NCBI GenBank assembly: GCA_019695345.1
Contig: JAIBAE010000005.1
Location: 9,186-73,185, forward strand
Direction of reading: 5' to 3'
Source of the DNA: Bacteroidota bacterium
GTDB lineage: Bacteria; Bacteroidota; Ignavibacteria; Kapaibacteriales; NICIL-2
DNA: 64,000 nt
Below, in pieces: positions 16,048-58,090 of the stretch. How positions within the stretch are numbered: the first letter of the stretch is position 1; each line of letters opens with the position of its first letter. Position numbers and translations under genes: made by a program. The notes under the pieces were generated by a model. That model did no database searches and was not told where the DNA came from. It saw only the letters and a list, made by a program, of their open reading frames with translations.

Positions 16048-16111
16048 GTGCGCCGCAGCTACCCACCAGCGCGCCGACCCTGCGCGAACCGCCCGATATA
16101 TTGGCGCAGGG
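16048..16111. repeat. Family B-related GC-rich fragment in the 480-bp divergent intergenic region upstream of the AT-rich island.
   Basis: GTGCGCCGCAGCTACCCACCAGCGCGCCGACCC (its reverse complement resembles the B5 stretch GCGCGCTGGCGG) followed by the inverted repeat CCCTGCGC...GCGCAGGG. Confidence 0.35.
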
Positions 16112-16247
16112 TGAAACAAACTGTAAAACTATTTAACCATTCTAAATCAGTGATTGACTATTTTGTACATAACAGAATTACAAAAAATAATGTCCGTTGC
16201 CTCCTTTTATATATCTCGTTATTTTTTCATTAAACCTTGGAGTCCCT

Positions 16248-17531
16248 ATGAACTCTACCAAATCAAGAAACGAAAACATTCGTTGTCTTGCTGTTGCCAT
16301 TCCCCACCAACACAATAAACTCGGTGGGGGGCTGAAACTAACACAATTTTTTTTCCTCCTATTCTTGCTCCTTGTGCTTAAGCATTCTCTAATAGCACAA
16401 ATACCCGGTTCTAACCGATTACTTCCCGATGGCAAAGCAGGTATTGGATATAATGATCCCGAACCGGCTTTAGAAATTTCGTCGCATGTACTTAACGAAA
16501 ACAATCCTTCAATTTTATTTTCAACAGGCGAAATACCTATTGGTGGAAGCGGTACAAATAGAACGGTGAAGGCTTATATTGCTTTATTAGATAATCTCAA
16601 TACATGGAGATATATGTGGCGCAATGCTGAAAATCATGATTTCCTGATAAAAGCAACAGCAACAGCAAACAACATCATATTCTCAACAGAAAGCGTTGCG
16701 GGGTATAAGTTTTTTACTCACGGAACGATTGAACGAATGAGAATGAATCATGCTGGTTTTCTTGGATTGGGTTCTAAAGATCCACGTGATATTTTGCATT
16801 TGCATTTTCAGCAAGGCGAAGATGATGTAAATCCACCCGACCCAAATCTAAATCCGAACTATAATTTGATGTTGGGCGCTGGAAGTATTTACTTTAACTG
16901 CCTTTACGATGACAGGGCGATTCCGATGGGGTATAAAAACTTTGATGGACGATTTGCATCTATGCAATTAGGGTATGATGAATTTGGTGTATCATTTAAA
17001 ATGGATAGATCTATCACATCAAACACATATATATTTAGCAGTAGAGAAAATTATGATTTTAAAGGGTTACGAATTACATCCGATGGAAGTATTGGTATTT
17101 GTAATCAAGCTCCTGTTGCAAGATTGGATATCAAAAGTCAACCACGTGGGCCGGCAAATATCAGAGTACCGGCAATACGACTTACTAATAGTAGTGGCAC
17201 AGAAAAGTTTAAGGTATTTGATGACGGCTTTGTGGCATGCAGTGAGTTAAAGGTTGCTATACCTGGTGGTAGCGATTGGCCTGATTATGTTTTTACTACT
17301 TCATATAAACTAACTCCATTATCAGAAGTTGAAACCTTTATCAACAACAACGGCCACTTACCCGGTATACCCAGTACAAAGGATATTGAAGAAAACAAAG
17401 GGATTGAGGTTGGTGCATTACAAGTAAAGTTACTTGAAAAAATTGAGGAACTTACCTTACATGTTATACAGTTAAAAAAGGAATTGGAAGAAACCAAAAA
17501 CAAACTTCTAACAATAAAAGGAAGTGACTAA
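16248..17531 (+). CDS. Secreted tail-fibre-like surface protein: Bacteroidota 'tail fiber domain-containing protein' family with a C-terminal coiled-coil/chaperone-like segment.
   Basis: N-terminal AGIGYNDPEPALEISS (matches the G.GIGT..P...L.V motif of this family). C-terminal ...NNNGHLPGIPSTKDIEENKGIEVGALQVKLLEKIEELTLHVIQLKKELEETKNKL. Signal-peptide-like hydrophobic stretch. First gene of an AT-rich block. Confidence 0.45.
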   Translation: MNSTKSRNENIRCLAVAIPHQHNKLGGGLKLTQFFFLLFLLLVLKHSLIAQIPGSNRLLPDGKAGIGYNDPEPALEISSHVLNENNPSILFSTGEIPIGGSGTNRTVKAYIALLDNLNTWRYMWRNAENHDFLIKATATANNIIFSTESVAGYKFFTHGTIERMRMNHAGFLGLGSKDPRDILHLHFQQGEDDVNPPDPNLNPNYNLMLGAGSIYFNCLYDDRAIPMGYKNFDGRFASMQLGYDEFGVSFKMDRSITSNTYIFSSRENYDFKGLRITSDGSIGICNQAPVARLDIKSQPRGPANIRVPAIRLTNSSGTEKFKVFDDGFVACSELKVAIPGGSDWPDYVFTTSYKLTPLSEVETFINNNGHLPGIPSTKDIEENKGIEVGALQVKLLEKIEELTLHVIQLKKELEETKNKLLTIKGSD

Positions 17532-18076
17532 TGAAATTTATTTACTATCTATTTTTATTATTCTTTTGTCTACTGTTTACTTCTAGTATAAGTCAGGCAT
17601 TAATCAATGACACAACAAATTTAAAAGTTATTGCACATACTGGGGCTGATAAAATCAGGTTATATTTATTTACAGGTATTGGTTCCAATCAAGGTAATAG
17701 AATTGGATTAAATGCTGAGTATAATAACTATAGAGTAGGTTGTGCTGTAGGAGGAGGTTTTAAAACATTGGCTTATCTTTTTGGTTCTGGCGATGCTGAA
17801 TACGTATATTCTGGTTTTGTTGAAGCACCATTTATACTATATCCGAAATTTAACATTGGCTGTTCCTACTCGTATAGAGTTTTAGGTAATAATAATAAAG
17901 ACTTAAGAGGAAATTTAGGAATGTACTTTATCGTAAACATATTACTATCAAGGTACTTTATATTTTCTTTCGGTGCTGGTTACGATAGGTTAGTTTTCTC
18001 ACAACCTGAATATATGGGTAGTAAATATTTAAACAACCTACACTTAGATATCAAACTAAATTTTAAATTATATTAA
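17531..18076 (+). CDS. Small (181 aa) putative outer-membrane beta-barrel protein.
   Basis: Signal peptide, alternating hydrophobic beta-strand pattern, C-terminal ...LNFKLY aromatic end. Its start codon overlaps the upstream stop. Very AT-rich. Confidence 0.4.
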   Translation: MKFIYYLFLLFFCLLFTSSISQALINDTTNLKVIAHTGADKIRLYLFTGIGSNQGNRIGLNAEYNNYRVGCAVGGGFKTLAYLFGSGDAEYVYSGFVEAPFILYPKFNIGCSYSYRVLGNNNKDLRGNLGMYFIVNILLSRYFIFSFGAGYDRLVFSQPEYMGSKYLNNLHLDIKLNFKLY

Positions 18077-18084
18077 GGTCTGAT

Positions 18085-20193
18085 ATGAAAATTACTTTAT
18101 ATGTTTTTTGGGTGTTTTTACTATACAGTTGTAATATGTATAGTAAAGGGCAATATCATAAGTTTATACATAAAGAACATGTTCATCAATACATCGTAAA
18201 AGAGGCTTATAAGCTACTTGAAGAAGAGGTCGGAGAAATTCCAATTTTAAAAAGTTACTTAGGACTAAACTATAATGGGAAAGGACCAACTCATAATCCC
18301 TGGAATGTAGATGATGCTGTTGTGATTGGTGCTTGGGAGGAAGATGAAATTGATGCTTTAAATTTTGGTGGCGGAGCATGGACTACAGTAACACATTTTT
18401 GGTCACCACATTGGGGTGATACTTGGAAGCCATATCTAATCGCAAGTGGACACAAGCCAAATGCATATATGAAAGCATTACGATATTTCGGTGGGAGTGA
18501 TTGGCAAACATATTATTTTGATGAATGGCAGGATTACTTCTTCTTTAACCGTAATGCATACCTTGGTGTTCCTGTTAATGGGACAGAAATCAGAGTAATT
18601 AGTACAAAATATCAGTACAACAATCTCTGTAATTTTCTAAGTGAAGGAAATGCAATACTTGTTGGAGTAACTGATATAGCAGGATATACGAGTTACCACT
18701 ATCAACAAGTTCAGTTCTCAGATATCGTACGTAAACAATATGGTTTTAATATTCTTGGCAGGATGCTACATTTATTAGGTGATATGAGCGTTCCAGCACA
18801 TACTCGTAATGACGATCATAAATGTAGCCCCCCACTTCCAGATCCGGAACTGTATGAGGTTTTTATGGGTTCGCCCTTGATTGACGGTACTTGGTATCCA
18901 TATATAATAGATTGCAATGATCACCCTAATGTATTTTTTGCTCAAAAATGGAACCATACAGATGTTAGAAAGAAGGGAGGATTACTATATGAAATATTTG
19001 ACATGAATGATGTTGATGCATTGCGATACCTTTACTATAGCGTGAGCATGCTAACAAACCATTTTCCTTCAACTGATGAAGATGGTATACATAATCTCAA
19101 TTATGGCACCACATTGACGATTAATCGTAAATATTCAGATTTAGGAACACCCCATACAAAAGGATGGATGGATGAAGATTTTGAATTTAATCATTTAGAC
19201 GATATTGCTAATGAGACTTTCACATATGTCATAAGGGCTAGCGCGACACTAATGTATTGGATGTGTGCTAAAACTGGATTAGTAAGTTGCCCAAATACAC
19301 GCTATTTACAAAGTGAACTTTATTACGGAGCCAGAGATGAGAATGAGGAATCAACAATATCCGCAAATACATCAGTGATAACAGGGAATAATGTGAAAGG
19401 TAATATACCAACAGGAGATTATATTGTTGAAAGTCCCGCTCGGCTATCTTTACGGGCAGGTAATTCTGTTCAACTAAAAAGTGGTACACATATCAAAAGT
19501 GGATCTAATTTCAGAGCATATTTAGGATCTTGCCAATTTGCATCAAATACATGTAGTTTGAATGGGAACACAACAACCGTTCAAGATGATAATAAAAAAG
19601 TAAATTTACTTACTCCGATAAATGACACAAAAAACACCATCTCTACTCAAGAGACATTAGATACTGTGCAAAGAATAGATATTAAGTTATATACAGGGTG
19701 GCAGAAAGATTCGATAGATATTGACACTGTTGCCTTTACTAATTGGTACAGCAGTAAACGTACAAAGGGTAATTACATCAGTACAACGGATTCTGCATTT
19801 GAGTTTTTATTACCATATTCTTGGTTAGCAGATACAGTTGTAATGAGAACTATGAATGACAGCATTATTAAAATTTATCCGAAACGAACTTTGGTTACGC
19901 TTAATCCATATGATGTGGTATTAACAGCTGATAGTATAGCTGTAGCTTTAATAAAACGAAACGATAATATCCCAATTCTTGCATACCCTGTTCCAGCCAA
20001 TGGTAGTAAACTACGTTTTGCTGAGTTTGATGTACAAGAGGTTACCGTATTTAACTCGTCGGGTGTGCCATATGGTACAGTCAAAGTAACTAATAATGAA
20101 ATTGATATTTCAGCTTTACCAAATGGTACTTACTACGCACGTATCCCAACATCAACTGGGTTTCTAGTTAAGCCATTTATAATTGTTCGGTAA
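18085..20193 (+). CDS. T9SS-secreted zinc-dependent phospholipase C / P1-nuclease-superfamily protein.
   Basis: HLLGDMSVPAHTRNDDH matches the H-x-x-G-D-x-x-x-P-x-H zinc-binding motif of Zn_dep_PLPC (compare C. perfringens alpha-toxin HYFGDIDTPYHP). N-terminal H..I..EAYKLL is also present. C-terminus ...ISALPNGTYYARIPTSTGFLVKPFIIVR is a T9SS type-A CTD. Confidence 0.6.
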   Translation: MKITLYVFWVFLLYSCNMYSKGQYHKFIHKEHVHQYIVKEAYKLLEEEVGEIPILKSYLGLNYNGKGPTHNPWNVDDAVVIGAWEEDEIDALNFGGGAWTTVTHFWSPHWGDTWKPYLIASGHKPNAYMKALRYFGGSDWQTYYFDEWQDYFFFNRNAYLGVPVNGTEIRVISTKYQYNNLCNFLSEGNAILVGVTDIAGYTSYHYQQVQFSDIVRKQYGFNILGRMLHLLGDMSVPAHTRNDDHKCSPPLPDPELYEVFMGSPLIDGTWYPYIIDCNDHPNVFFAQKWNHTDVRKKGGLLYEIFDMNDVDALRYLYYSVSMLTNHFPSTDEDGIHNLNYGTTLTINRKYSDLGTPHTKGWMDEDFEFNHLDDIANETFTYVIRASATLMYWMCAKTGLVSCPNTRYLQSELYYGARDENEESTISANTSVITGNNVKGNIPTGDYIVESPARLSLRAGNSVQLKSGTHIKSGSNFRAYLGSCQFASNTCSLNGNTTTVQDDNKKVNLLTPINDTKNTISTQETLDTVQRIDIKLYTGWQKDSIDIDTVAFTNWYSSKRTKGNYISTTDSAFEFLLPYSWLADTVVMRTMNDSIIKIYPKRTLVTLNPYDVVLTADSIAVALIKRNDNIPILAYPVPANGSKLRFAEFDVQEVTVFNSSGVPYGTVKVTNNEIDISALPNGTYYARIPTSTGFLVKPFIIVR

Positions 20194-20283
20194 TACATTA
20201 TGTTGTCGTATAAGCCACTGCATTTTTGTAGTGGCTTTTTATTTATGTTTTACTATTGGTTATATCAACCTACCTTAACGTTT

Positions 20284-30600: not shown

Positions 30601-31138
30601 TATGTTAACAACATTAGATACAATTTCTTCTGAGTTGATTTTAGAAAACCCTTATTGGCAATATAAGCACGACCGTTACGTAATGCCCAATGGTAAGGAA
30701 GGTTCTTACTTCTACGTAAACACTCATGGATCTGTGTTTATTATTCCGGTTACAGATGATGGAACGTTTGTTCTTACAAAGCAGTACAGGTATCTTAACC
30801 AGAGAGTTAGCATAGAATTTCCGGGTGGAGGAATAAAGGATGGTATTACACCGGAAGAACAAGCACGATTAGAATTACAGGAAGAAACCGGATACACTTG
30901 CAGTTCATTGCGCCATATTGGGGTAATGAACCCTATGAATGGCGTTACAAATGAATTGTGTTACGTGTATATCGCAACGGGGTTAACATACGTCGGAGCC
31001 AAGCCGGAAGAATCGGAAGAGTTTTTACAGGTTGAGTATAGTAGGAAGGAAATCACTTCTGCAATACAATCAAATGAAATTTGGGATGGTATGACGTTAG
31101 CTGCCTGGGCTATGGCTTTACATCACCTTGAGAAGTAG
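30601..31138 (+). CDS. NUDIX hydrolase (ADP-ribose pyrophosphatase-like).
   Basis: Nudix box GGGIKDGITPEEQARLELQEETGY. Confidence 0.8.
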
Positions 31139-31141
31139 TAT

Positions 31142-31224
31142 AGTTGCTTGCAGAGGTTTATTCCGGCAAGCAAACTGCTAATAATTGTTAAATGTGTTCC
31201 GGTGCCGTCGCGCGATAGCAACGA
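31142..31224. repeat. Family A element, right half.
   Basis: Hairpin TTGCTTGC...GCAAGCAA containing TTCCGGCAAG (reverse complement of the internal CTTGCCGGAG motif), then terminal GGTGCCGTCGCGCGATAGCAAC (31201-31222). Confidence 0.45.
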
Positions 31225-31254
31225 CACTGAAACAAGCTAATGAAGTTCTGATTA

Positions 31255-34894: not shown

Positions 34895-34899
34895 TTTTT

Positions 34900-39606: not shown

Positions 39607-39880
39607 ACCGGTATCCTTACCAAATAATCCTAAACTGCCATCAATCAAACAGATGGCTACTGTGCAAAACTACGGAAAATGTGCAACCAAATTGAATTCA
39701 AGTACGAGTTTGTTGGTTCCCCTCACAGTACATCACACCGAATAGCGCGCAAACCCGGTGCGAACAAACCCTCTACTTCGGAATTTATTGATACATACAA
39801 ACGTGGCATAATACTTGCCAAAATCAGGTTGTTCTTTATAATGGATGTACATCAGGATGAATTCAAACGGAAGGAACCGC

Positions 39881-40630: not shown

Positions 40631-42550
40631 ATGTGTGGGATAGCCGGTACATTTCATTACAATAATAACGCTGAAGTGAATTTTGATACACTTCATGCAA
40701 TGACATCCACTTTACATCATCGTGGGCCGGATGATAGCGGATACTACATGAATCCCACCCATTCTGTTGGTTTAGGGCACCGTAGGTTAAGTATCATTGA
40801 TGTTAGTAGTGCAGGTAAGCAACCCATTAGTAACGAAGATGGAACTCTACATATAGTTTTTAATGGAGAAATCTACAACTATAAAGAACTCCGCGAATGG
40901 CTTATAAGTGCCGGACACAAATTTAAAACCAAAACAGATACAGAAGTTATACTCCATTTGTTTGAAGAAGAAGGAACAAGAGCATTTGAACATCTAAACG
41001 GAATATTTGCAGTTGCCATATTCAATGAGAAAACTAATCAGCTAACATTAGCCAGAGATAAATTTGGTGTTAAGCCGTTGTATTACTCAGATACAGCTGG
41101 TTCTTTGATGTTTGGTTCGGAGATTAAGGCAATCTTGGCCAACAACACATACAAAAAATCACTTGACTACAATTCACTTGGAACATTTTTAACGTTTAGG
41201 TTTAACCCATCGCCACAAACACTATTCACTAATATCAAAAAACTACCTCCGGGTTCAGTTTTAATTGTTAATCAAAATTCAAAGACAAGGGTACAATCAT
41301 ACATTCGTAACAGGCCTTCAACGTTTTCCAACATTTCCGAGCAAGATGCATCATACGAATACAAGCAGTTACTCCGCAAAGCGATAGAACGCCAAATGAT
41401 GAGCGATGTTCCTGTGGGTTTACTGTTGAGTGGCGGTATTGACTCAGCAATGATTGGTAAAATAATGGTGGAACACACCGATTCTCCGGTGTCATCGTAC
41501 ACCATAGGTTTTGAAGGCAGTGGCGACTTTAATGAATTGGAGGATGCACGTAGAACTTCCCAGATAATTGGTACGAATCACCACGATATGGTAATTGGGA
41601 AGCAAGATTACATGGATGTATTTGCACGCTCATTTTACTACACGGAAGAACCCATTGCTATGACGACTATTCCGGCAATGTACTTAGTTTCACAGCGGGC
41701 GGCACAGGATGTAAAAGTAGTTCTTGCAGGGCAAGGTGCAGATGAGCCTTTAGCCGGCTATCCACGGTATATAGGGGAAAAGCTATTCTCCGATTACGCA
41801 TGGTTATTACAAATGATACCACTATCATTACTTTGCAAAATCCTGCCAAGGAATGAACAGTTAAAACGTGCGTTGTTTGCCAAACAGTTTGTAAATGAAC
41901 AAGAACGATTCTTAGGCATCCACACTATTTTCTCTCCGGATATGAAGGAGAAGTTACTTCATCCGGAAGTTCAGATTGAAATATTGGATAATGATAAACA
42001 GTTTATTGAAACAATCTACGAGAACTCAAAAGAGCTATCAGATTCTTTATCTCGTTTGCTCTATATAGATGCACGTTTCAACTTGCCGGATAACTTGCTG
42101 TTGTTTAACGATAAAATGAGTATGGCTAACTCAATAGAGATGCGTGTACCATTTTTAGATATTGAACTCATGTCATTCCTCGAGTCGCTTCCCTCTTCTC
42201 TTAAGCTAAAAAGAACAACTGGTAAATACATTCACAAAAAGGCATGCGAAGATTTATTGCCACACGAAATTATTAACCGTAAGAAACGTGGTTTTGCAAC
42301 ACCTATGGATGAATGGTTGCAAGGTGATTTTGCAAACACTATTTCCAGATTGTTTAACGAACCCAACTCTGCCGCAAGAAAATACTTTAATGTGAATTAT
42401 ATTAATCAAATGGTTCTCCTCCATCAAACTAAACGAGAGAACTACCAACGCCATCTGTTTGCTTTACTTAGCTTTGAATTATGGCATCGAAACTTCTTTG
42501 ATGCGGTTCAACAACCTGAGTACATAAACTCCGAAGCATTGTTTGCGTAA
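40631..42550 (+). CDS. asnB: Asparagine synthase (glutamine-hydrolysing).
   Basis: MCGIAG... N-terminal nucleophile Cys; SGGIDS PP-loop; typical length. Confidence 0.95.
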   Translation: MCGIAGTFHYNNNAEVNFDTLHAMTSTLHHRGPDDSGYYMNPTHSVGLGHRRLSIIDVSSAGKQPISNEDGTLHIVFNGEIYNYKELREWLISAGHKFKTKTDTEVILHLFEEEGTRAFEHLNGIFAVAIFNEKTNQLTLARDKFGVKPLYYSDTAGSLMFGSEIKAILANNTYKKSLDYNSLGTFLTFRFNPSPQTLFTNIKKLPPGSVLIVNQNSKTRVQSYIRNRPSTFSNISEQDASYEYKQLLRKAIERQMMSDVPVGLLLSGGIDSAMIGKIMVEHTDSPVSSYTIGFEGSGDFNELEDARRTSQIIGTNHHDMVIGKQDYMDVFARSFYYTEEPIAMTTIPAMYLVSQRAAQDVKVVLAGQGADEPLAGYPRYIGEKLFSDYAWLLQMIPLSLLCKILPRNEQLKRALFAKQFVNEQERFLGIHTIFSPDMKEKLLHPEVQIEILDNDKQFIETIYENSKELSDSLSRLLYIDARFNLPDNLLLFNDKMSMANSIEMRVPFLDIELMSFLESLPSSLKLKRTTGKYIHKKACEDLLPHEIINRKKRGFATPMDEWLQGDFANTISRLFNEPNSAARKYFNVNYINQMVLLHQTKRENYQRHLFALLSFELWHRNFFDAVQQPEYINSEALFA

Positions 42551-42564
42551 TACAATTCCTAACA

Positions 42565-42625
42565 AAGGGTCGGACCCGACCGGGTTGCGGCGTTGAAGGA
42601 TATTGTATTGCGTGACTGAACCATA
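42565..42625. repeat. Family B element copy B2 (core only) immediately after the asnB stop.
   Basis: GGGTCGGACCCGACCGGGTTGCGGCGTTGAAGGAT; exact core GACCGGGTTGCGGCG at 42578-42592. Confidence 0.5.
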
Positions 42626-42680
42626 TTTTCTTCTTCAGTTAAACCTTTTCATTCGTGATGGTATCATAGGCACCAAAGCG

Positions 42681-42775: not shown

Positions 42776-43117
42776 ATGCGTTCAATGTTTGCAATAATTG
42801 CAGCCGTTGCTGTAATGTCGGTTGCCGGTTTTGCCGGAGATGGTAACAAAGAAGCTGCTAAGCAAGCAGTTAAAGATGCTAAAGTTGCTGTTGGTGCAGC
42901 AAAAGAAGCTAAACAAGATGCTAAAGCTAAAGTAACAGAAGCTAAAGCGGCTGTTAAAGATGCTAAAGCTTCCGGTGATGCAACTGCAAAAGAAACAGCT
43001 AAAGCAGCTGTTAAAGATGCCAAAGCAGCAGTTAAAGATGCTAAAGAAGCTAAACAAGATGCAAAAGCAAAAGTAAAAGAAGCTAAAGAAGCAGTTAAAG
43101 AAGCAAGAAAAAAATAA
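42776..43117 (+). CDS. Small secreted Lys/Ala-rich repeat protein (113 aa; ~11-residue AKxAVKDAKxA repeats, predicted helical).
   Basis: Signal peptide MRSMFAIIAAVAVMSVAGFA; repeats AKEAKQDAKAKVTEAKAAVKDAKA...; RBS-like GGAG upstream; terminator downstream. Opposite-strand ORFs over the same DNA are repeat artefacts. Confidence 0.5.
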   Translation: MRSMFAIIAAVAVMSVAGFAGDGNKEAAKQAVKDAKVAVGAAKEAKQDAKAKVTEAKAAVKDAKASGDATAKETAKAAVKDAKAAVKDAKEAKQDAKAKVKEAKEAVKEARKK

Positions 43118-43879: not shown

Positions 43880-43892
43880 CAACCATACACAA

Positions 43893-43960
43893 CTGCGCGA
43901 CGCTGAAGATTGTTTCCTGACCGGGTTGCGGCGCAGAAGAGTTGCTACGGCATGTGAGGG
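43893..43960. repeat. Family B element copy B3, immediately after the ccmB-like stop.
   Basis: AACTGCGCGACGCTGAAGATTGTTTCCTGACCGGGTTGCGGCGCAGAAGAGTTGCTACGGCATGTGAGGG. Core at 43919-43933. Here the tetraloop hairpin is UGC-UACG-GCA, a UNCG variant. Confidence 0.6.
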
Positions 43961-43967
43961 ATTCAAT

Positions 43968-44040
43968 AATATTTTGCTAACGCAAACTGCTCCGGGCGTA
44001 GTAGCAACAAACTCCCTTTTCATGCAGGAAAGAACGGCAA
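43968..44040. repeat. Family A element, left half, adjacent to B3 and ~30 bp upstream of the permease start.
   Basis: AATATTTTGCTAACGCAAACTGCTCCGGGCG (terminal motif) ... CATGCAGGAAAGAACGGC (internal motif). Confidence 0.5.
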
Positions 44041-44066
44041 TTTTCAAAAATCATTTATCGTGAAAT

Positions 44067-45398
44067 ATGGCTCTTGAACGGAAAATATCACTGCCACAGG
44101 CAACTGCGCTTAACATGATTGATATGGTTGGCATAGGACCTTTTATTGTTATGAGTTCGGTAATTGTTTCTATGGGCGGCCCGCAGTGTATACTTGCATG
44201 GGCAGCAGGCGCATTGCTTGCCTTTACCGATGCTTTTGTGTGGAGTGAACTTGGCGCGGCCATGCCCGAGGCAGGCGGCAGTTATGCATTCCTACGCGAA
44301 ACATACGGCAGAGAGAAATGGGGAAAGCTGATGTCGTTTTTGTTTATCTGGCAAACGATTTTTCAAGCATCGTTTGTAGTTGCTTCGGGTGCTATCGGGT
44401 TTTCTAAGAACTTCGAATATCTGTATCACTTTGATGCCCTTTGGCAAAAGAAACTTGTAGCGGGCGGCATTGTGTTACTTGTTGTACTGGCATTATACCG
44501 AAAGATTGAAACGCTTGGAAAGTTATCGGTTGCAATGTGGGTAGTTGTAATTGGTACAATGGGATGGATAATAATAACCGGTGCTACACATTTTAATAGC
44601 AGTTTAGCTTTTACCTACCCAACAAATGCGTTTACCATTGATTGGAATTGGTTTAAGGGTTTGGGCGATTCGATGCAATACACCGTCTATGCGTTTTTAG
44701 GATACTACAACGTTTGCCATTTAGGAAGCGAAATTCAAAATCCGCAAAAGAATATTCCTCGAAGCATGTTTATTTCGGTTGCGTTGATAACAGTTTTGTA
44801 CTGTGCAATGCAACTAAGCGTTTTAGGAATTATCCCTTGGCAAGAAACACAAAAAGACCAATTCATCTTTAGCATTTTAATGGAACGTGTGTACGGACAT
44901 ACTGCTGCCGTTGTTGTTACCGTACTAATTCTGTTTATTGCTTTTACGTCATTGTTTGCTGTAGTACTTGGTTACTCACGCATTCCGTATGCTGCAGCGT
45001 TAGATGGCAATTTCTTTAAGGTGTTTGCTAAAGAACATCCCGAGAAAAAATTTCCTCATATCTCGTTACTAGTTTTTGGCGGACTCTCGGTAGTGTTATC
45101 GGTAGTGTTTAACGATTTAAAACCGGTGGTTGCAATCATTCTAACTATGCGTATCATTGTACAGTTTATTGGTCAGAGCATAGGTTTAATCCTTTACCGA
45201 AAGCGTGTTGGTGCTAAGAATATGCCGTACAAAATGTGGTTGTATCCGTTACCTATCATAATTGCTGTAGGTGTTTGGTTTTGGTTGTTTACAACCCGTA
45301 GTTACGAAGCACAGGCATTTGGCGCAGGTATGATTTTACTTGGATTATGTGTATATTTTTTCCGTTCAACAATCAATTCTAAAACAATATCAGAATAA
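44067..45398 (+). CDS. Amino-acid permease (APC superfamily).
   Basis: 12-TM pattern; N-terminal ...MIDMVGIGPFIV... typical of APC transporters. Confidence 0.85.
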   Translation: MALERKISLPQATALNMIDMVGIGPFIVMSSVIVSMGGPQCILAWAAGALLAFTDAFVWSELGAAMPEAGGSYAFLRETYGREKWGKLMSFLFIWQTIFQASFVVASGAIGFSKNFEYLYHFDALWQKKLVAGGIVLLVVLALYRKIETLGKLSVAMWVVVIGTMGWIIITGATHFNSSLAFTYPTNAFTIDWNWFKGLGDSMQYTVYAFLGYYNVCHLGSEIQNPQKNIPRSMFISVALITVLYCAMQLSVLGIIPWQETQKDQFIFSILMERVYGHTAAVVVTVLILFIAFTSLFAVVLGYSRIPYAAALDGNFFKVFAKEHPEKKFPHISLLVFGGLSVVLSVVFNDLKPVVAIILTMRIIVQFIGQSIGLILYRKRVGAKNMPYKMWLYPLPIIIAVGVWFWLFTTRSYEAQAFGAGMILLGLCVYFFRSTINSKTISE

Positions 45399-46735: not shown

Positions 46736-46740
46736 TGCGT

Positions 46741-46920
46741 TATATGCTATCGCAGGACGGCACCATACACTCACACATACACAATCTCTACTTGCCGGAG
46801 AGAACCTTGTTCAATTTACCAGTGTATCACGATAGTTAGTTATTTATTACGAACGAAACTCTCCCGCACGACACTTGACCTTTTGAAGCTTAGGTTTGGA
46901 GCGGTTTGCGTTAGCATAAA
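46741..46920. repeat. Family A element, complete copy (~180 bp) starting 6 nt after the aspartate kinase stop.
   Basis: Left TATATGCTATCGCAGGACGGCACC; internal CTTGCCGGAGAGAACC and CTCTCCCGCACG (mutually inverted); right GGAGCGGTTTGCGTTAGCATAAAA (46898-46920). Confidence 0.65.
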
Positions 46921-46923
46921 ATA

Positions 46924-46960
46924 AATGGTGTCCTGAATAATCAGAACACCATTTATTTTT
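46924..46960. terminator. Bidirectional intrinsic terminator between convergent genes; the minus-strand T-tract is supplied by the family A terminus.
   Basis: AAATGGTGT(c)CTG-aataat-CAG(a)ACACCATTT then TATTTTT. Confidence 0.6.
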
Positions 46961-46975
46961 CGGCTGCAGAAAAGA

Positions 46976-47848: not shown

Positions 47849-48003
47849 AATAACTCCTGTTTGAGTAAATGAATAAATTATTCCTGACATCTTGTTCTAA
47901 GTTTGGGTACTGACTTTATTATTTCAGTACAAGTTTAATGTAGGGCAACATCTATTGGTACTTTACAATAACCGCCTTAATTTTATTCGGTTACAAAGAT
48001 AAG

Positions 48004-48059
48004 GCTTTCAAAAGTAAAGAACCGTTTTTTCAAGATTTCAACCGCTTTCAAAGGTAATG
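48004..48059. promoter_or_regulatory. Two direct repeats GCTTTCAAA(A/G)GTAA 40 bp apart in the divergent promoter region between the CpxP-like and carboxylate-amine ligase genes.
   Basis: Read directly (48004-48019 and 48044-48059). Confidence 0.3.
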
Positions 48060-48195
48060 TATTTGCAGAGTTACCTTTTGTTACAGCACTTTTTAAAGTT
48101 TTTTAAAAATTATTCTAAAAACCTTAAAAAACCATTTATATTGCTAATAATCAGCATAAAGAAACTCTCACCAACTCCAAGTATCGGAGGATTTT

Positions 48196-49452
48196 ATGAA
48201 AATTGCAGACCAATTCTCGAATTCCATAAAGGCATCGAATCCATACGAGCGCCCTGCATTTACCATTGGGATAGAAGAAGAATATATGGTTTTAGACCCA
48301 CAAACCTTTGATTTACGCTCTCATATCAATTTAGAGCTACTAAGCAAAGGAAGAATGATTCTTCATGAACATGTTAAGCCCGAAATGCACGGCTCGATGC
48401 TAGAAATTGGAACTGGCGTTTGCCGTAACGTAAAAGAAGCACATTTCGAGGTAACTAAAATCCGTTCCATTGTTGCACATCTTGCTAAACAAAATGGTTT
48501 ACTAATTGGTGCGGCATCAACACACCCGTTTGCCAAATGGCAAGACCAAGAAATTCATCCCGATGAACATTATCAAAATGTTGTGCGTGATATGCAAATG
48601 CTTGCACGCTCGTTGTTGATTTTTGGAATGCACATTCATATTGGTATCGAAAACCGCGAAACACAAATTCAAATCATGAATGTTATTCGCTACTTCTTAC
48701 CACATATTCTTGCAATAAGTACAAACTCACCGTTTTGGATGGGAATGGACACCGGGTTAAAATCATATCGCTCTAAGATATTCGAACGATTCCCTCGTAC
48801 TAACCTGCCCGATTACTTTGCAAGCTGGGGCGAATACGAAAGCTATGTGGATTTACTCATCCGTACAGGTTGTATAGATAACCCAAAAAAAATATGGTGG
48901 GATATTCGTCCGCATCCAAAATTCCCAACACTCGAAATCCGCATTTGCGATTTACCAATGCGTGTGGATGAAACCATAGCAATTGTTGCATTGTGCCAGG
49001 CACTTGCAGTAAAACTGTTCTCACTCTACGAGAAAAATCTTACGTTCCGCACATATCCACGCATGTTGCTTATGGAGAACAAATGGCGTGCTGTTCGGTA
49101 CGGACTTGAAGGAAAACTTATTGACTTCGGACGCCAACAAGAATACCCCGCAAAAGATTTAGTGCGCGAGCTTTTAGAGTTTGTTGATGATGTAGTTGAT
49201 GACCTCGGCTCACGCCGCTATATAGAATACATCTATCAAATACTCGAAATGGGTAGTGGTGCAGATAGACAACTCCGTGTGTTTAAAGAAACCGGAAGTA
49301 TCGAGCGTGTTGTTGAATACATCAATCAGGAAAGTATGACGGGACTCATCACCGACGTCTCTCCTTATCTTGCAACAACATTCCGCGAGCCAAGCGCCGA
49401 TGCAATCCAAGAGAAAATGTCATCACTAACACCGCCAAACGATATCATATAA
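48196..49452 (+). CDS. Carboxylate-amine ligase (glutamate-cysteine ligase family 2, YbdK-like).
   Basis: ...FTIGIEEEYMVLD... GCS2 signature. Confidence 0.85.
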   Translation: MKIADQFSNSIKASNPYERPAFTIGIEEEYMVLDPQTFDLRSHINLELLSKGRMILHEHVKPEMHGSMLEIGTGVCRNVKEAHFEVTKIRSIVAHLAKQNGLLIGAASTHPFAKWQDQEIHPDEHYQNVVRDMQMLARSLLIFGMHIHIGIENRETQIQIMNVIRYFLPHILAISTNSPFWMGMDTGLKSYRSKIFERFPRTNLPDYFASWGEYESYVDLLIRTGCIDNPKKIWWDIRPHPKFPTLEIRICDLPMRVDETIAIVALCQALAVKLFSLYEKNLTFRTYPRMLLMENKWRAVRYGLEGKLIDFGRQQEYPAKDLVRELLEFVDDVVDDLGSRRYIEYIYQILEMGSGADRQLRVFKETGSIERVVEYINQESMTGLITDVSPYLATTFREPSADAIQEKMSSLTPPNDII

Positions 49453-49456
49453 CATT

Positions 49457-49620
49457 TGGGTTACCCGCCACTGCCGAAGCAACCCAACCTGCGCCGGCAC
49501 ACAGGCGGGAACGTACCACAACTATCGCATTTGTACTTTGAACCTTTGTTCATCATGCGCCGCACAACCTGTGGCTCGCACCGGGTTTGCGCGCTGGCGG
49601 CTCGCTTCGGCAACAGAGAG
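49457..49620. repeat. Family B element, inverted pair (copy B5): reverse-oriented unit at 49457-49500, forward unit at 49577-49620.
   Basis: GGGTTACCCGCCACTGCCGAAGCAACCCAACCTGCGCCG is the reverse complement of the B1 3' part. The forward unit reads CGCACCGGGTTTGCGCGCTGGCGGCTCGCTTCGGCAACAGAGAG. Confidence 0.5.
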
Positions 49621-49637
49621 AAATCATAACATAAAAA

Positions 49638-49676
49638 AAAGGCAGTCCGTGTAAAAACGAACTGCCTTTATTGTTT
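49638..49676. terminator. Bidirectional intrinsic terminator between the ligase gene and pckA.
   Basis: AAAAAAAA GGCAGT-ccgtgtaaaaacga-ACTGCC TTTATTGTTT. Confidence 0.65.
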
Positions 49677-49690
49677 ACAATAGTAACTAA

Positions 49691-51283: not shown

Positions 51284-51410
51284 AATGGTACCAAATATGT
51301 ATGAAACAATTGTGAGAGAGCTTATTACGGACACAAATATCGTGTTTTTTCCCCTACTATTATCCGCCTAATTTTCAAATGATTTTTTCGTAACAATAAA
51401 TTTAGCGAAC

Positions 51411-51645
51411 TGTTATGCTATCGCCAGCCGCACCACGCAGTAAACCTTCTAAAATCCTTGGTTTTGCGGGAGAGATCCTTCTGCAAAACAAGGCGTTTTT
51501 CGTGATGGAACAATACTTAGTAACCATATGAATTTACGCAGGCTATCAAAGATGTAGGGCTATTACTTAGTACAAGGTACTTTCCGGCTTTGTGTGGCTA
51601 TGTTGTGTAGCAAGGCATTGTGCCGTCCGGCGATAGCAACAGAAT
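51411..51645. repeat. Family A element, complete copy (~235 bp) in the pckA / idi divergent region.
   Basis: Left TGTTATGCTATCGCCAGCCGCACCACG (51411-51437); internal hairpin CCTTGGTTTTGC-gggagagatccttc-TGCAAAACAAGG; right ATTGTGCCGTCCGGCGATAGCAACAGAAT (51617-51645). Confidence 0.65.
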
Positions 51646-51719
51646 TACATACAATTAAAATGAAGAAATGTTTTTCACGTTTTAGCCACGCACGTTGAAT
51701 TGTCTTGGTAAATTGCAGT

Positions 51720-52805: not shown

Positions 52806-53766
52806 ATATGTTGAGTTAATTGAATCGTATCTGCAATACTCTTTGCAACATACCAATATGCCTGTATCGCTTATTGAACCGTTTACGTATATAATGGCGC
52901 CGGGCGGGAAACGGATTAGACCTGTATTGTGTTTGTTGGCAGCAGAAGCAGTTGGCGGTAAACCGGAACAAGCCGTAACTGCCGGTGCCGCTGTTGAGAT
53001 TCTCCATAACTTTACATTAGTACACGATGATATTATGGACCGCTCGCCAATACGGCGCGGCAATCCTACTGTCCACACAAAATGGGATGACTCTACAGCT
53101 ATACTAACCGGCGATGTAATGATGGCATTTGCATACCGGATGTTGATTTCATCTATACCAGCTCAGCATTTACACTCTGTATTACAATCATTTACAAAGG
53201 GCTTTGTTGAAGTTTGCGAAGGACAAGCATTAGATATTGAATTCCATAAACGCGACACAGTATCGGTTGCGGAATATTTAGAAATGATTGAAAAGAAAAC
53301 AGCACGTTTACTTGAGTTGAGCGTTGTAATTGGAGCAACACTTGGTGGTGGTACCGATGCACACATAGAATTACTCCGTGCGTTTGCGCTAAACATTGGC
53401 ATTGCATTCCAGATACAAGATGATGTATTGGATTTAACAGCAAACACACATGAATTGGGCAAAACAATTGGACAAGATATTGTAGAAGGTAAAAAGACAA
53501 TTCTAATCATCCGTGCAACTGAACGTGCTACCAAACCCGAGCATAAAGAACTGTTACAACAATTTTGGCAGAACAATGGTTTGCCCGTGGATAAAGTACC
53601 AACAGTACGTACAATGATGGAAGAGCTTGGCGTATTAACAGAAGCACGAGCAATGGCGCAACACTACTTTACTAATGCCGCACAGGATATTCAGCAACTA
53701 CCGCCATCTAATGCACGCGACTTATTGTTTCAAGTAATCGAGATGTTGAATGTAAGGAAGAAGTAG
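52792..53766 (+). CDS. Polyprenyl diphosphate synthase (GGPP/FPP synthase family).
   Basis: First and second Asp-rich motifs LVHDDIMDRS and FQIQDDVLD. Confidence 0.9.
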   Translation: MAFTKYVELIESYLQYSLQHTNMPVSLIEPFTYIMAPGGKRIRPVLCLLAAEAVGGKPEQAVTAGAAVEILHNFTLVHDDIMDRSPIRRGNPTVHTKWDDSTAILTGDVMMAFAYRMLISSIPAQHLHSVLQSFTKGFVEVCEGQALDIEFHKRDTVSVAEYLEMIEKKTARLLELSVVIGATLGGGTDAHIELLRAFALNIGIAFQIQDDVLDLTANTHELGKTIGQDIVEGKKTILIIRATERATKPEHKELLQQFWQNNGLPVDKVPTVRTMMEELGVLTEARAMAQHYFTNAAQDIQQLPPSNARDLLFQVIEMLNVRKK

Positions 53767-53769
53767 CTT

Positions 53770-53836
53770 CTCTCCCGCAGCTGTACGGTGTGTAGATGTG
53801 TGTGGCTTGGTGCGGTCAGGCGATAGCAAATAAAAA
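53770..53836. repeat. Family A element, right half, abutting the polyprenyl synthase stop.
   Basis: CTCTCCCGCAG (internal motif) ... CTTGGTGCGGTCAGGCGATAGCAAATAAAAAA (terminal motif). Confidence 0.5.
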
Positions 53837-53878
53837 AGCGATACCGAGAAATTCAGTATCGCTTAATTTTTAAAGTAA
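53837..53878. terminator. Bidirectional intrinsic terminator.
   Basis: AGCGATAC-cgagaaattc-AGTATCGCT then TAATTTTT. On the minus strand the T-tract is the A-run of the family A terminus. Confidence 0.65.
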
Positions 53879-53896
53879 GAGTTGTTGGTTGTGTTA

Positions 53897-54391
53897 CTAT
53901 TGCACTAATGTTTTACCAAATGCAACCCAACCTTCTAATCCTTTTTTAAGATACCACACCCACTCAAATTTGTTTGCTACCATAATTCCACAAGCAGTCA
54001 TGGAACGTTTGCCATCTTTACAAACAATAACAATGTTCCGTTCCTTTTCTTTGCGTAATGATTGAACTCGTTTCTCGAATTCATCGAACGGAATATTAAT
54101 TGCGCCTTCCATATGACCTTTTGCAAAATCTTCCGGCGGATTAACATCAATTATCAGTAATTCTTTACCACCTTTGTAATGTTCGATTACTTGTTGCATT
54201 TCCAGAGGTGTAAAAGAATTTACTTTAATGGTATCCAACTTGGAATTTGGGCGAACACGCATTAAATCCGTTGTTGGTTGTTGCGCGGCTTCTGTTGCGG
54301 GTGCAGGTGTTACTTTATTTTTCTTACCTTGCCCGGCAAACGAAACAACAATGCTACCTATGCAAAACAAAAAGAGTGTGGTGAATCTCAT
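53897..54391 (-). CDS. Rhodanese-domain protein (secreted/periplasmic).
   Basis: ...LLIIDVNPPEDFAKGHMEGAINIP...VIVCKDGKRS... active-site Cys loop; signal peptide. Confidence 0.8.
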   Translation of the reverse strand: MRFTTLFLFCIGSIVVSFAGQGKKNKVTPAPATEAAQQPTTDLMRVRPNSKLDTIKVNSFTPLEMQQVIEHYKGGKELLIIDVNPPEDFAKGHMEGAINIPFDEFEKRVQSLRKEKERNIVIVCKDGKRSMTACGIMVANKFEWVWYLKKGLEGWVAFGKTLVQ

Positions 54392-54409
54392 AAACTACAA
54401 TCCTTACAA

Positions 54410-55180
54410 TTATTTTTTGTCTGTTGCAGGTGCACCTTTTTTAACACCAAGCAACTCTACTTCGAATACTAATGTTGATGCCGGAGGAATACCTTGGCGC
54501 CCTTGCTCGCCATAGGCTAAGTTGTATGGAATGTAGAGTTCGTATTTGGAACCAACATTCATTAAGCCAACTCCTTCGGTCCAACCTTTAATAACACGGT
54601 TTAACGGGAACTCAATTGGCTCGCCACGGTCTATTGATGAATCGAATACTTTACCATCAATAAATGTTCCTTTGTAATGAACTTTCACGGTATCGGTTGA
54701 GCTTGGTTTTTCGCCATCGCCTTGTTTAACAACTTTATATTGTAATCCGCTTGGGGTGGTAACTACACCGGGTTTCTTAGCATTTTCGGCTAAAAATTTT
54801 GCACCTGTGTTTTTGTTCGAGGCACCCATTTCAGCCATTTCTTTTTCTTGTTCAGCTTGTTTTTGTTGTTGATATCTTCCAAAGATGCCGCGCATTTGTT
54901 CTTCGGTCATTTGTAGTTTATTTGCAAAGCCATCGTTAATTGCCTGAATAATAAGCTGCGGATTAACTTCCAGACCTTCTTGTTTAATAGTACCAATTAG
55001 GTTCATACCAAGTAGGTAACTCATACTGTCGGCAAATGTTTTCATCTGTACTGTTGCCGCTGGAGCCGGTGTTGCAGCCGGAGCCGGTTTCTTATCCTTT
55101 TTGGCGGGTTTAGAAGCTTGCGCAAATCCAACTGCGCTACATACTAACAGTGCAAAACAAAGTACTGATAGTTTTTTCAT
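54410..55180 (-). CDS. FKBP-type peptidyl-prolyl cis-trans isomerase (FkpA-like, periplasmic).
   Basis: ...[15 protein letters not shown]...[18 protein letters not shown]...LVFEVELL... Confidence 0.9.
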
Positions 55181-55295
55181 GATTTTCCTATAATATTATT
55201 AAATATAACCTGCAAAGATAGTGTTTGCGCGGGTCATAGACACGCCTAAAAGCAATTGGTAAACAACAAAAAAGTGTTAAGAAAAATATAATAGT

Positions 55296-55375
55296 TATAG
55301 GTTTTCTGCGCTTCCGCGCCAACGGCACCTAACCTCAACAATACTAACACCTTGTTTTGCCGGAAAGAGCCGTAC
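55296..55375. repeat. Family A element, degenerate left half.
   Basis: TCTGCGCTTCCGCGCCAACGGCACC (terminal-motif-like) ... TTGTTTTGCCGGAAAGAGCCG (internal motif). Confidence 0.35.
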
Positions 55376-55394
55376 TTTTAATCATGTTGCCCTA

Positions 55395-55610
55395 TCACGA
55401 TTTCTGCTGTTTTACTTTGCAGGTTGAAACACCAAACAGCACATACAATGGGCAAAACCCAGTAATACCGGAAAATAAAAATCCAATAGATAACGCTCCT
55501 AACACAAGCGCCGTTACACCTTGAATTATATCCAAGTACCATAGCACTCCAACAAGAACTACCAATACAAAACGAATGCTTCTATCAATCATTCCCATGT
55601 TTTTTATCAT
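55395..55610 (-). CDS. DUF2892/YgaP-like small membrane protein.
   Basis: 71 aa, two TM helices, ...GFCPLY... motif typical of DUF2892. Confidence 0.6.
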   Translation of the reverse strand: MIKNMGMIDRSIRFVLVVLVGVLWYLDIIQGVTALVLGALSIGFLFSGITGFCPLYVLFGVSTCKVKQQKS

Positions 55611-55641
55611 AGCATACGCTCCTTTACATACAATAATAGAA

Positions 55642-56322
55642 CTACATCAATATTGTTTCACCAATAACCGGTAGGCGTAGTGTTTTTCCTTTATGTTCAA
55701 ACGCACTTGTAGCTTGTGCGTGGTCAATCACTATATACCCAAATGTATCAAAGTGAACACCAATAATATTGTTACAGTTTACAAAGTCGCTAGCAATTAA
55801 AGCATCTTCATACCCCATAGTAAAGTTATCGCCAACCGGCATTATAGCACAATCAATCTTGTGATGTTCGCCAATCAGCTTCATATCTAATGTTAGTGCG
55901 GTATCACCACTGTAATAAAAACTTCCATCTTTGGTTTCAATGATAAATCCCATTGGGTTGCCACCGTAAGTGCCATCCGGCAAACCGCTGGAGTGTTGTG
56001 CAACCGTGCATTTAATACTTCCCCATTCTTGTTGCCACCTGCCTCCGGTATTCATGGGACGCATATTTGTTAAACCTTGTTTTGTTAACCACTCATACAC
56101 TTCCCACGAGCATACAACACAAGCTCCCGTATGCAGTGCCAATTGAACTGCGTCTGCAATGTGGTCTGCATGACCATGAGAAATCAAAATGTAGTCTGCT
56201 TGGATATCATTAATGTTGATATTTTTAGCTAATTCGTTTGGGGTAATAAAAGGATCGAACAACAGTTTTTTTTCAGCTACTTCCACGCTAAAACATGCGT
56301 GACCATAAAATGTAAAATTCAT
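55642..56322 (-). CDS. Metal-dependent hydrolase, metallo-beta-lactamase fold (UPF0173-like).
   Basis: MNFTFYGHACFSV...ILISHGHADH... Confidence 0.8.
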   Translation of the reverse strand: MNFTFYGHACFSVEVAEKKLLFDPFITPNELAKNININDIQADYILISHGHADHIADAVQLALHTGACVVCSWEVYEWLTKQGLTNMRPMNTGGRWQQEWGSIKCTVAQHSSGLPDGTYGGNPMGFIIETKDGSFYYSGDTALTLDMKLIGEHHKIDCAIMPVGDNFTMGYEDALIASDFVNCNNIIGVHFDTFGYIVIDHAQATSAFEHKGKTLRLPVIGETILM

Positions 56323-56430
56323 AACAAGTTAAGATAGTTGTAAATACTATAAAGCAAAATTACAGCATTTTGAGTGCTGCCATAATAATAAAAATGGAAA
56401 GAGGAGGAGTCTGATAATTGGAAGTAACAA

Positions 56431-56934
56431 TTATTCCCATGTAAGAATTTTTTGAGCAGATTTTGCTGATTTCTTAAAGGCGGATGATGGCGATAACGTT
56501 ATTGCTTGCTTATTGGCATGTAAGTTTATAGAAAACTTACAATCATCGTTAGCAAAACATTCAAGCATGTTTTTAAATTCGGTAGGTGTTATAGAACTTG
56601 TATACCTTGTAAACTCTTCTTCTCTAAACAATTGTTTTACTTCTGTAGTAGTAATGGTATCTTTTGAACTATTGATAATAAAAACTAAACTTGAGACTGT
56701 ATTCGTATTGATTTCTGATGATTCAACAGTAAAGTTACATAGTACATTTTTATTAGGAGTTGTATTGTGAGTAAAGTCGATAATTACATCAACATCTTTA
56801 CCGGTCAGTTGAGTTGGACGTACAAAGTATAAAGTTCGCCCCTCCGTCATTAGAAATGACTCAACCGGCTTCCCAGACGAGCATCCTATTAGTAATGTAA
56901 GTAACATCACTGTATAAGTATGGATTAATTTCAT
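56431..56934 (-). CDS. Hypothetical lipoprotein (167 aa), AT-rich.
   Basis: Lipobox LLIGCSSG; no recognised domain. Confidence 0.45.
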   Translation of the reverse strand: MKLIHTYTVMLLTLLIGCSSGKPVESFLMTEGRTLYFVRPTQLTGKDVDVIIDFTHNTTPNKNVLCNFTVESSEINTNTVSSLVFIINSSKDTITTTEVKQLFREEEFTRYTSSITPTEFKNMLECFANDDCKFSINLHANKQAITLSPSSAFKKSAKSAQKILTWE

Positions 56935-57450
56935 TTACTTTTCTAATCTGGACTGCAAAAATTCGCTACTATCAAAAACACTTTTAGCTAATGCAGAATC
57001 TTTAGTTATTAATGAGAAAACTTCATTCATTCCTGGAACTTTTGAACTTTTCCAATATTGTGTCACATAGATATCATTAACCCTCATCAGCAGCGATGTT
57101 GCTGATGTATTAGCAATAGTAGCTTGATGTTTACTAACTAAAACTCTGGTGGAATCGGAGGTAAGTAAATGTATATACTGGGTGGTAGTTAATGATGTAT
57201 CTGCAAAAGATATATATATACCGTAATTATTAGCTTCTATTACTTTATTAATAGGTAACGAAATATCACCAGGGGCACATAGAAACTCATATACCCTAAC
57301 CCTCTCCTTTGTTGCAGTCACTTCTTGTTCTCCGTCCATTAATTGAAAAGTCTGATTCATTCCGTAAACCAAATGTTTACCATTAGATTTATTACATGAT
57401 ACAATGGAAAATGAAAGAAGTACTAGAAAAAAAATCGTAATATTTTTCAT
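56935..57450 (-). CDS. Hypothetical lipoprotein, AT-rich.
   Basis: MKNITIFFLVLLSFSIVSCNK lipobox; no recognised domain. Confidence 0.45.
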   Translation of the reverse strand: MKNITIFFLVLLSFSIVSCNKSNGKHLVYGMNQTFQLMDGEQEVTATKERVRVYEFLCAPGDISLPINKVIEANNYGIYISFADTSLTTTQYIHLLTSDSTRVLVSKHQATIANTSATSLLMRVNDIYVTQYWKSSKVPGMNEVFSLITKDSALAKSVFDSSEFLQSRLEK

Positions 57451-57517
57451 AAACATTCTACAAAAAAAGAAAGACTGGAACAACAATGTATTCCAGTCTT
57501 TAGAAAGTTCGATTCAA

Positions 57518-57802
57518 TTATTCACCGGAAACAATACATGTATATGTTTGAATTAAACCAAGCATATCAGTCATTTTAAAATCAACGGTTGAGATTTTAC
57601 TGATGCCACCATTTTTAGCAGCAGTGCGTATACTAGCATCAACACCTAAGTTAATACCATGCAAGTATCCCGTTCCGGAAGCTTCGCCTACTTTTGAGCC
57701 AACTGGATTACTTGTAGCACACACAGGAACTGTCATTGAACAAGCACTTAAAGAAATTGCTACTACTGCAACAGCAGCAAACATTTGAATGTAACGTTTC
57801 AT
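57518..57802 (-). CDS. TRL-family small lipoprotein.
   Basis: 94 aa; ...LSACS...GEASGTGYLHGINLGVDASIRTAAKNGGISKISTVDFK... resembles Bacteroidota TRL-domain proteins. Confidence 0.5.
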   Translation of the reverse strand: MKRYIQMFAAVAVVAISLSACSMTVPVCATSNPVGSKVGEASGTGYLHGINLGVDASIRTAAKNGGISKISTVDFKMTDMLGLIQTYTCIVSGE

Positions 57803-58019
57803 CAGAAAACCTCCAAGATATGGATTAAAAAATATAAACTATGGGATAGTCCCCAAAATTCCCCTGAATTATAATTGTGAGCATGGTGCAATATAATTTT
57901 TTTTTCAATGCACAGCCAACTGTTTTTTAATGGTAGGTGTTTATATTCAAGCGTATACCTACTTAACATCGCGGTAGGAGAGATATTGTAACTTCATTTA
58001 CTGACCTATCCTCAATGTC

Positions 58020-58090
58020 TATCAGCGATGCTGTATCGGTTGGTACCGACCGGGTTGCGGCGCTTAAGGATTGCTTCGGCAAATGAGGGG
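58020..58090. repeat. Family B element copy B4, in the divergent region between the TRL and sppA genes.
   Basis: ...GGTACCGACCGGGTTGCGGCGCTTAAGGATTGCTTCGGCAAATGAGGGG. Exact core at 58048-58062; UUCG hairpin TTGC-TTCG-GCAA. Confidence 0.6.

Follow-up and report, generated by a model that had tools for sequence, protein, structure and literature searches.

The window analyzed here is a 64,000-nucleotide stretch of contig JAIBAE010000005.1 (positions 9,186 to 73,185, GenBank assembly GCA_019695345.1) from an uncultured bacterium of the Kapaibacteriales (Bacteroidota). Its genes, which include accA, asnB, a CcmB-like gene, pckA and sppA, are separated by intergenic regions that carry two families of GC-rich repeats, termed A and B. 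This analysis concerns family B, a collinear GC-rich unit of ~80 nt (75-85 nt) that was recognized by reading and aligning the sites of a 15-mer, GACCGGGTTGCGGCG. The 15-mer occurs as four exact plus-strand copies (starts at 21329, 42578, 43919 and 58048) where 0.01 are expected by chance, and a count of four was reached in none of 100 shuffles. Nine copies of family B were recovered from the window (Table 1) by both an nhmmer profile and a covariance model, the latter run with filters off, and these score between 53.7 and 79.7 bits in the covariance model with the next match at 11 bits. Five copies are on the plus strand and four on the minus strand, and their GC content is 0.46-0.63 as compared to ~0.40 for the window. 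Seven are single units, two of which are degenerate. All nine are intergenic; non-coding DNA comprises ~14% of the measured segment and every copy falls within it. An earlier note made from this sequence had listed six loci, all of which are confirmed, including an inverted pair (49452-49537 on the minus strand and 49548-49632 on the plus strand) and a fragment near 16048 that both searches recovered as 16031-16116. That list was incomplete, however, as the minus-strand copies at 236-321, outside the range covered by the note, and at 39708-39790 must be added. The gene contexts that it described (after asnB, after the CcmB-like gene, between the accA stop codon and its terminator, and in divergent promoter regions) are correct.

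Alignment of 14 copies, comprising the nine in the window and five arms on Joint Genome Institute (JGI) contigs L011, L013 and L014, indicates that pairwise identity is 36-83% overall, with motifs that are collinear across ~80 nt. From 5' to 3' a unit consists of the motif TGCGNNGC, ~15 variable nt, a first hairpin (H1), ~10 nt, a second hairpin (H2) and a GAGGG motif. H1 is a 23-nt imperfect hairpin in which C-(C/G)-(G/C) pairs with (C/G)-(G/C)-G, with three weaker outer pairs, and its conserved 9-nt loop reads NCNGKGTNN with the C, G, G and T invariant. RNAalifold analysis of the 14 copies places compensatory changes in H1 pairs 34-36/46-48, where two neighboring pairs switch together from CCG..CGG (nine copies) to CGC..GCG (five copies) and one pair is an invariant C-G. 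The extended H1 helix is paired in 86.9% of cells versus 34-63% when its 3' partner is slid. The exact 15-mer corresponds to the 9-nt loop of H1 plus the 3' strand of its stem. In the four copies that contain it this core is 100% identical and the flanks are 47-50% identical, in agreement with the divergence of flanks reported earlier, while the core differs in five of the nine window copies. Constraint on the core, as had been proposed, is supported, and the stem that contributes the 3' part of the 15-mer covaries. H2 has the form GC[UNCG]GC, with its two innermost pairs (65/72 and 66/71) kept in 12 of the 14 copies and a loop of UUCG in nine, UACG in two and UGCG in one. The UNCG variants noted previously are therefore real, but the claim that each copy has such a hairpin does not hold, as the copies at 42548-42630 and 39708-39790 are without it. 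A long outer helix between 5' GCGNCGC and GCGGCGC was not supported, since in the one register tried 28% of cells were paired, which does not exceed the values with a slid partner.

Family B units also occur as head-to-head doublets of ~180 nt, with one in the window and one each on L013 and L014. All three doublets combine one CGC-type arm with one CCG-type arm across a 26-36-nt AT-rich spacer, and in each case the start is within a few nt of a stop codon and the end coincides with the terminator T-tail of the convergent gene. The arms of one doublet are 48-55% identical and partly complementary, and most B copies are single arms. When compared with shuffles, the long hairpins of the L013 and L014 doublets have folding z values of -2.9 and -3.3, while that of the window doublet is -0.75. 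A direct repeat, ATAACAT, flanks the doublet of the window (49449-49455 and 49626-49632), with no such repeat at the L013 and L014 doublets or at single units. It is likely that the full B element is a head-to-head doublet of a CGC-type and a CCG-type arm that can be folded into a ~180-nt hairpin, and single units are probably half-elements or decayed doublets. Regarding position, five window copies start within ~15 nt of a stop codon and four of the nine are in divergent promoter regions.

Comparison with ten same-species contigs, which are 98.7-99.9% identical to the window and cover 34067-55400, demonstrates that B copies turn over within the species by one clean loss and one conversion-like patch. 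The loss is in L032 (GCA_044228895.1, a metagenome-assembled genome (MAG) that is 99.5-99.7% identical to the window), which does not have the 61 nt at 43897-43957 of the copy at 43888-43972. The junction, CAACTGC|GGGATTC, exhibits 1-nt microhomology and leaves the ends of the element in place (TGC, GGG...). Since the more distant strain L031 (98.7%) keeps this copy, the difference in L032 is a loss. In L028 and L029, ten differences are clustered at 49599-49630 within one arm of the doublet, and these shift the arm toward the family consensus and lengthen the H2 stem, so that the cluster looks like a conversion patch. L028 differs from the window at 2.84% of sites in family B and 2.27% in family A, compared with 0.65% of the remaining intergenic sites and 0.49% of coding sites. 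Differences are thus 4-5 times more frequent in the two repeat families than in coding or other intergenic DNA. At the accA stop codon, strain L007 (AccA 99% identical) has the same B copy with three substitutions, and in a relative whose AccA is 84% identical that position is occupied by a family A element.

Beyond the window, family B is restricted to one lineage, low-GC 'Candidatus Kapaibacterium/Kapabacteria'. A metagenome scan yielded three genuine B contigs from one JGI sample, L011 with a single unit and L013 and L014 with doublets, that together supply five arms, have a GC content of 0.38-0.39 and exhibit no flank homology to the window. No B copy is present in relatives with 81-90% AccA or PckA identity and a GC content of 0.47-0.49 (L004-L006, L015-L017, L020 and L021), and there is no further copy in ~15.6 kb of same-species sequence past the ends of the window. 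A scan of a genome collection with the 15-mer and hairpin pattern, in which the source species is not among the representatives, gave only three chance matches in GC-rich genomes. Viral, plasmid and phage searches gave a single chance match inside a phage ORF. In the viral contig IMGVR_UViG_3300025326_000120 (L008-L010, L012 and L038; GC 0.64) the strict pattern falls within a 254-aa ORF, with no other B motif present, and we regard this match as chance. Rfam searches produced no match to the window at gathering thresholds and none to the B copies in permissive mode at E values up to 5. In the collection of papers searched, we found no description of repeats in Kapaibacteria. The GC content is ~0.39-0.42 in the source species and in the relative with 84% AccA identity, and the next relatives, at 0.47-0.49, have neither repeat family. 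Thus, the GC-rich repeats sit in a lineage that has turned AT-richer.

Taken as a whole, the evidence favors an explanation of the repetitive extragenic palindrome (REP) type, an outcome that the earlier note had itself set against its own proposal. We consider it probable that B is an extragenic repeat, structured, non-coding and specific to its lineage, of the kind represented by REPs, by their inverted doublets (REPINs) and by transposable elements of the miniature inverted-repeat type (MITEs), because it is strictly intergenic, independent of orientation, present as singles and inverted doublets, composed of GC-rich hairpins, confined to one lineage and subject to turnover within the species. 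REPs are GC-rich, occur singly or clustered, favor convergent gene pairs and affect mRNA stability (PMC3184786), and REPINs consist of inverted pairs that fold into hairpins, with single copies left as remnants (PMC3337134). Family B resembles the REPs, REPINs and bacterial interspersed mosaic elements (BIMEs) of Enterobacteria, Pseudomonas and Stenotrophomonas (SMAG) in being GC-rich, extragenic, hairpin-forming and present in many copies, in having both single units and inverted doublets able to form a long hairpin, in its frequent location between convergent genes or just after stop codons, and in its turnover within a species. There are also differences. A typical REP is 21-65 nt long, whereas B has 75-85 nt with two hairpins plus flanking motifs. 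REPs have a GTAG-type 5' tetranucleotide, whereas in B the columns 5' of H1 are variable and the nearest conserved motif, TGCG, lies ~20 nt upstream. Finally, the hosts of the elements named above are Proteobacteria and the host of B belongs to the Kapaibacteria, which are related to Bacteroidota/Chlorobi.

Similarity also extends to MITEs and palindromic units such as the Neisseria Correia, enterobacterial ERIC, Rickettsia RPE and Porphyromonas gingivalis BrickBuilt elements. Like B, these are small, non-coding and intergenic with inverted ends that give a long hairpin, they occur close to promoters and terminators, and their families are specific to a lineage, with several able to inhabit the same genome. 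RPE elements also insert within genes, and B is found in intergenic DNA only. Family B displays the presence/absence polymorphism typical of MITEs through the absence of 43897-43957 in L032, which is a loss only and is seen in one MAG. Unlike MITEs, it has inverted arms of poor complementarity and more single arms than doublets, and no parent insertion sequence with matching ends is known. The ends of IS200/IS605 elements and PATEs are a third point of comparison as these involve a small imperfect hairpin with sequence-specific bases that, as in B, would be recognized on one strand, and excision is possible without a footprint duplication. However, the left and right ends of IS200/IS605 elements are not inverted repeats as are the B doublets, B has no conserved 4-5-nt target adjoining just one of its ends, conserved B motifs (TGC, GGG...) remain after the 61-nt loss in L032, and neither a TnpA nor a TnpB gene was seen among the genes of the window and ~15 kb of flanks.

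With regard to mechanism, a trans-acting enzyme that recognizes H1 in single-stranded DNA could have spread the copies, much as RAYT (REP-associated tyrosine transposase) or IS200/IS605-type enzymes do for REPs, and inserted copies would then persist because they are tolerated. Hairpins that lie in transcribed 3' untranslated regions (UTRs) may in addition modulate the stability of mRNA 3' ends, like REP and SMAG elements. In Chlorobia, RAYT group 4 is reported to be common (PMC5581495), which would make a partner enzyme for B plausible. Several observations weigh against the REP/MITE reading. No transposase or RAYT is present among the genes of the window and ~15 kb of flanks (~80 kb; the rest of the genome was not scanned). 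Only a loss and no new insertion was seen, and the loss in L032 could reflect hairpin-stimulated slippage or a MAG assembly error. The copies are old and diverged, with no near-identical pair that would point to recent spread. REPIN arms belong to one group and are 94-98% identical, whereas the arms of B doublets are of two subtypes at 48-55%, and no consistent target-site duplication of the MITE kind was found for B. Lastly, the invariant H1 loop, the UNCG variants and the excess of G.U pairs would also fit selection at the level of RNA.

This last point bears on the principal alternative, which we judge to be unlikely, namely that B is a cis-acting RNA module kept by selection at each site, with H1 as a protein- or RNA-binding loop and a UNCG-capped H2 that act in 3' or 5' UTRs. 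Such a module could act as a barrier to exonucleases, aid termination or attract an RNA-binding protein. It would account for an H1 stem that changes by compensation around an invariant loop, for an H2 loop in which the second position of UNCG alone is variable (U, A or G), for the location of five window copies close to a stop codon and for the improved H2 stem in the L028/L029 patch. The sense strand of B also contains 26 G.U versus five A.C pairs, although this count is biased since the pairs were picked on that strand. What this alternative does not explain is that the sense strand of B is present in the mRNA of asnB and ccmB while the antisense strand is in the mRNA of accA and of the L011 gene, and that inverted doublets put both orientations into a single transcript. 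The four copies in divergent promoter regions are likewise unexpected. Furthermore, single units fold no better than shuffles (z of -1.2 to +1.0), B has no relative in Rfam, H2 has been lost from two copies and one copy is dispensable in that it is absent from a 99.7% identical strain. The RNA-level function hinted at in the earlier note is consequently not supported as a dedicated role.

A less conventional view, to which we assign a quite low likelihood, is that B, and perhaps A, is the substrate of an undescribed repeat-enzyme partnership in Kapaibacteria in which a domesticated single-strand transposase or nuclease reads the H1 loop, or else that an RNA-binding protein of the host recognizes B as a 3'-UTR regulon. 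Under both versions the two types of doublet arm would be functionally distinct ends and not decayed copies.

It is very unlikely that B is instead a DNA-level platform on which the 15-mer is the site for a host protein, be it a nucleoid-associated protein, a gyrase- or integration host factor (IHF)-like protein or a global regulator. An exact 15-mer amid diverged flanks, the near-palindromic CCGGG in the core and the copies in divergent promoter regions would be in keeping with such a platform, and in E. coli, IHF, DNA polymerase I and gyrase are known binding partners of BIMEs (PMC3184786). Nevertheless, compensatory stem changes around a loop point to a folded single strand and not to a duplex site, the conserved motifs span ~75 nt including a tetraloop hairpin, many copies are at gene 3' ends, and the core itself varies among copies. 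That the family arises by chance or from the base composition of GC-rich islands between genes can practically be dismissed, for while the strict pattern also matches GC-rich genomes and phage coding sequence by chance, the count of exact 15-mers, the covariance score gap and the collinearity of motifs in 14 copies rule it out.

Several known types of element were rejected as well. Family B is not an intrinsic terminator, as H1 and H2 are without following T-runs and separate canonical terminators are found beside the elements. A tRNA-derived origin is not indicated since ARAGORN detected no tRNA gene in the window. An attC/integron interpretation was discounted given housekeeping flanking genes, with no integrase and no R'/R'' core sites. 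Finally, a DNA uptake signal (USS/DUS) is not consistent with a 15-mer that is found only inside the ~80-nt unit and only between genes.

Table 1. Family B copies, adjoining terminators and family A elements in the window. Scores are those of the covariance model.
Feature	Positions	Strand	Score and structure	Context
B single unit	236..321	-	70.3 bits, also nhmmer; H1 stem CCG..CGG, variant loop CCCGTGTGA; H2 GC[UACG]GC	Divergent promoter region upstream of OmpA/TSP3 gene; same copy in same-species contig L025
B single unit, diverged	16031..16116	-	60.6 bits; H1 stem CGC..GCG, loop GCAGGGTCG; H2 GC[UGCG]GC	Divergent region between pseudouridine synthase gene and ORF 16197 (Pfam)
B single unit	21298..21383	+	75.3 bits	Between stop of accA (21382, - strand) and its terminator; antisense to the mRNA of accA
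H1 of copy 21298-21383	21323..21345	+	3+3 bp stem broken by U.C mismatch; 9-nt loop ACCGGGTTG; exact 15-mer 21329-21343	
H2 of copy 21298-21383	21352..21365	+	GC[UUCG]GC plus at most 3 weaker pairs	
accA terminator	21270-21247	-		Adjoins B copy 21298-21383
B single unit, diverged	39708..39790	-	57.3 bits; H1 stem CGC..GCG; H2 lost	Divergent region between response-regulator gene and FkbM methyltransferase gene (Pfam)
B single unit, degenerate	42548..42630	+	53.7 bits; exact 15-mer; without 5' TGCG motif and H2	Directly after asnB stop (42550)
B single unit	43888..43972	+	75.7 bits	12 nt after stop of CcmB-like gene (43879); abuts partial family A element 43967-44098
B doublet, head-to-head	49452..49632	.	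- arm 49452-49537 (CCG..CGG), 60.9 bits; AT-rich spacer; + arm 49548-49632 (CGC..GCG), 72.2 bits	Starts 2 nt after stop of YbdK-like ligase gene (49452); ends at T-tail of pckA terminator
pckA terminator	49669-49638	-		Adjoins B doublet 49452-49632
B single unit	58016..58101	+	79.7 bits	Divergent region between TRL-domain gene and sppA; identical in strain contigs L022-L024
Family A copies 1-7	458-666, 2755-2939, 4042-4236, 8545-8745, 13751-13952, 25094-25283, 28713-28897			
Family A copies 8-14	31051-31229, 43967-44098, 46736-46924, 51408-51647, 53662-53837, 60638-60811, 62945-63125			

The elements of family A are palindromic, intergenic and GC-rich, with a length of 160-225 nt and a density roughly double that of B. 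They have the ends TTGCTAACGCAAACCGCACC and GGTGCCGTCCGGCGATAGCAA and contain five conserved blocks, the first of which pairs with the fifth and the second with the fourth. Together the two families make up 49% of the non-coding DNA in 34067-55400. The earlier note had linked them through a shared motif and viewed both as modules of one repeat system. This link is not borne out, as the motif ATCYTTCWGC is not enriched (17 matches versus 11.3 +/- 3.6 expected) and the profile of neither family matches the other. Families A and B share a habitat with no detectable common ancestry, and kinship is not supported. Family A is variable among strains and relatives. For example, L025 contains an extra 2.5 kb with a 755-aa gene between two family A copies (7242-10029), where a lone hybrid A end is found in the window at 4204-4274, and this indel is the product of recombination between A copies. 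In L015 (85% AccA identity) there is a 10-nt spacer at 7191-7202 where the window has the A copy 25094-25283, which constitutes an empty site. In the relative with 84% AccA identity the A copy that occupies the position of B directly after the accA stop is at 2915-3085 of L018.

Family B is best viewed as a new family within the known REP/MITE type, and as neither a new class of element nor a new kind of RNA gene. As REP/REPIN-type repeats have been studied mainly in Proteobacteria, it offers a tractable case of invasion and persistence outside of the classical hosts. Families A and B visibly drive change at the strain level as seen in one clean loss, one patch that resembles conversion and the 2.5-kb indel flanked by A copies. 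In practical terms, MAG assemblies will be interrupted at these repeats, and motif screens can mistake them for structured RNAs.

Two further repeats in the window are of the tandem type. A repeat with a 141-nt period is located at 42848-43104 and has two copies (116 nt aligned, 80% identical) within ORF 42776-43117, which is small and has only a weak SEC10/PgrA-like match. The other, at 1491-2154, is composed of thrombospondin type-3-like repeats with units of 66-69 nt that code for DxDxDGxxDxxE and lie inside the OmpA-family gene at 764-2662.

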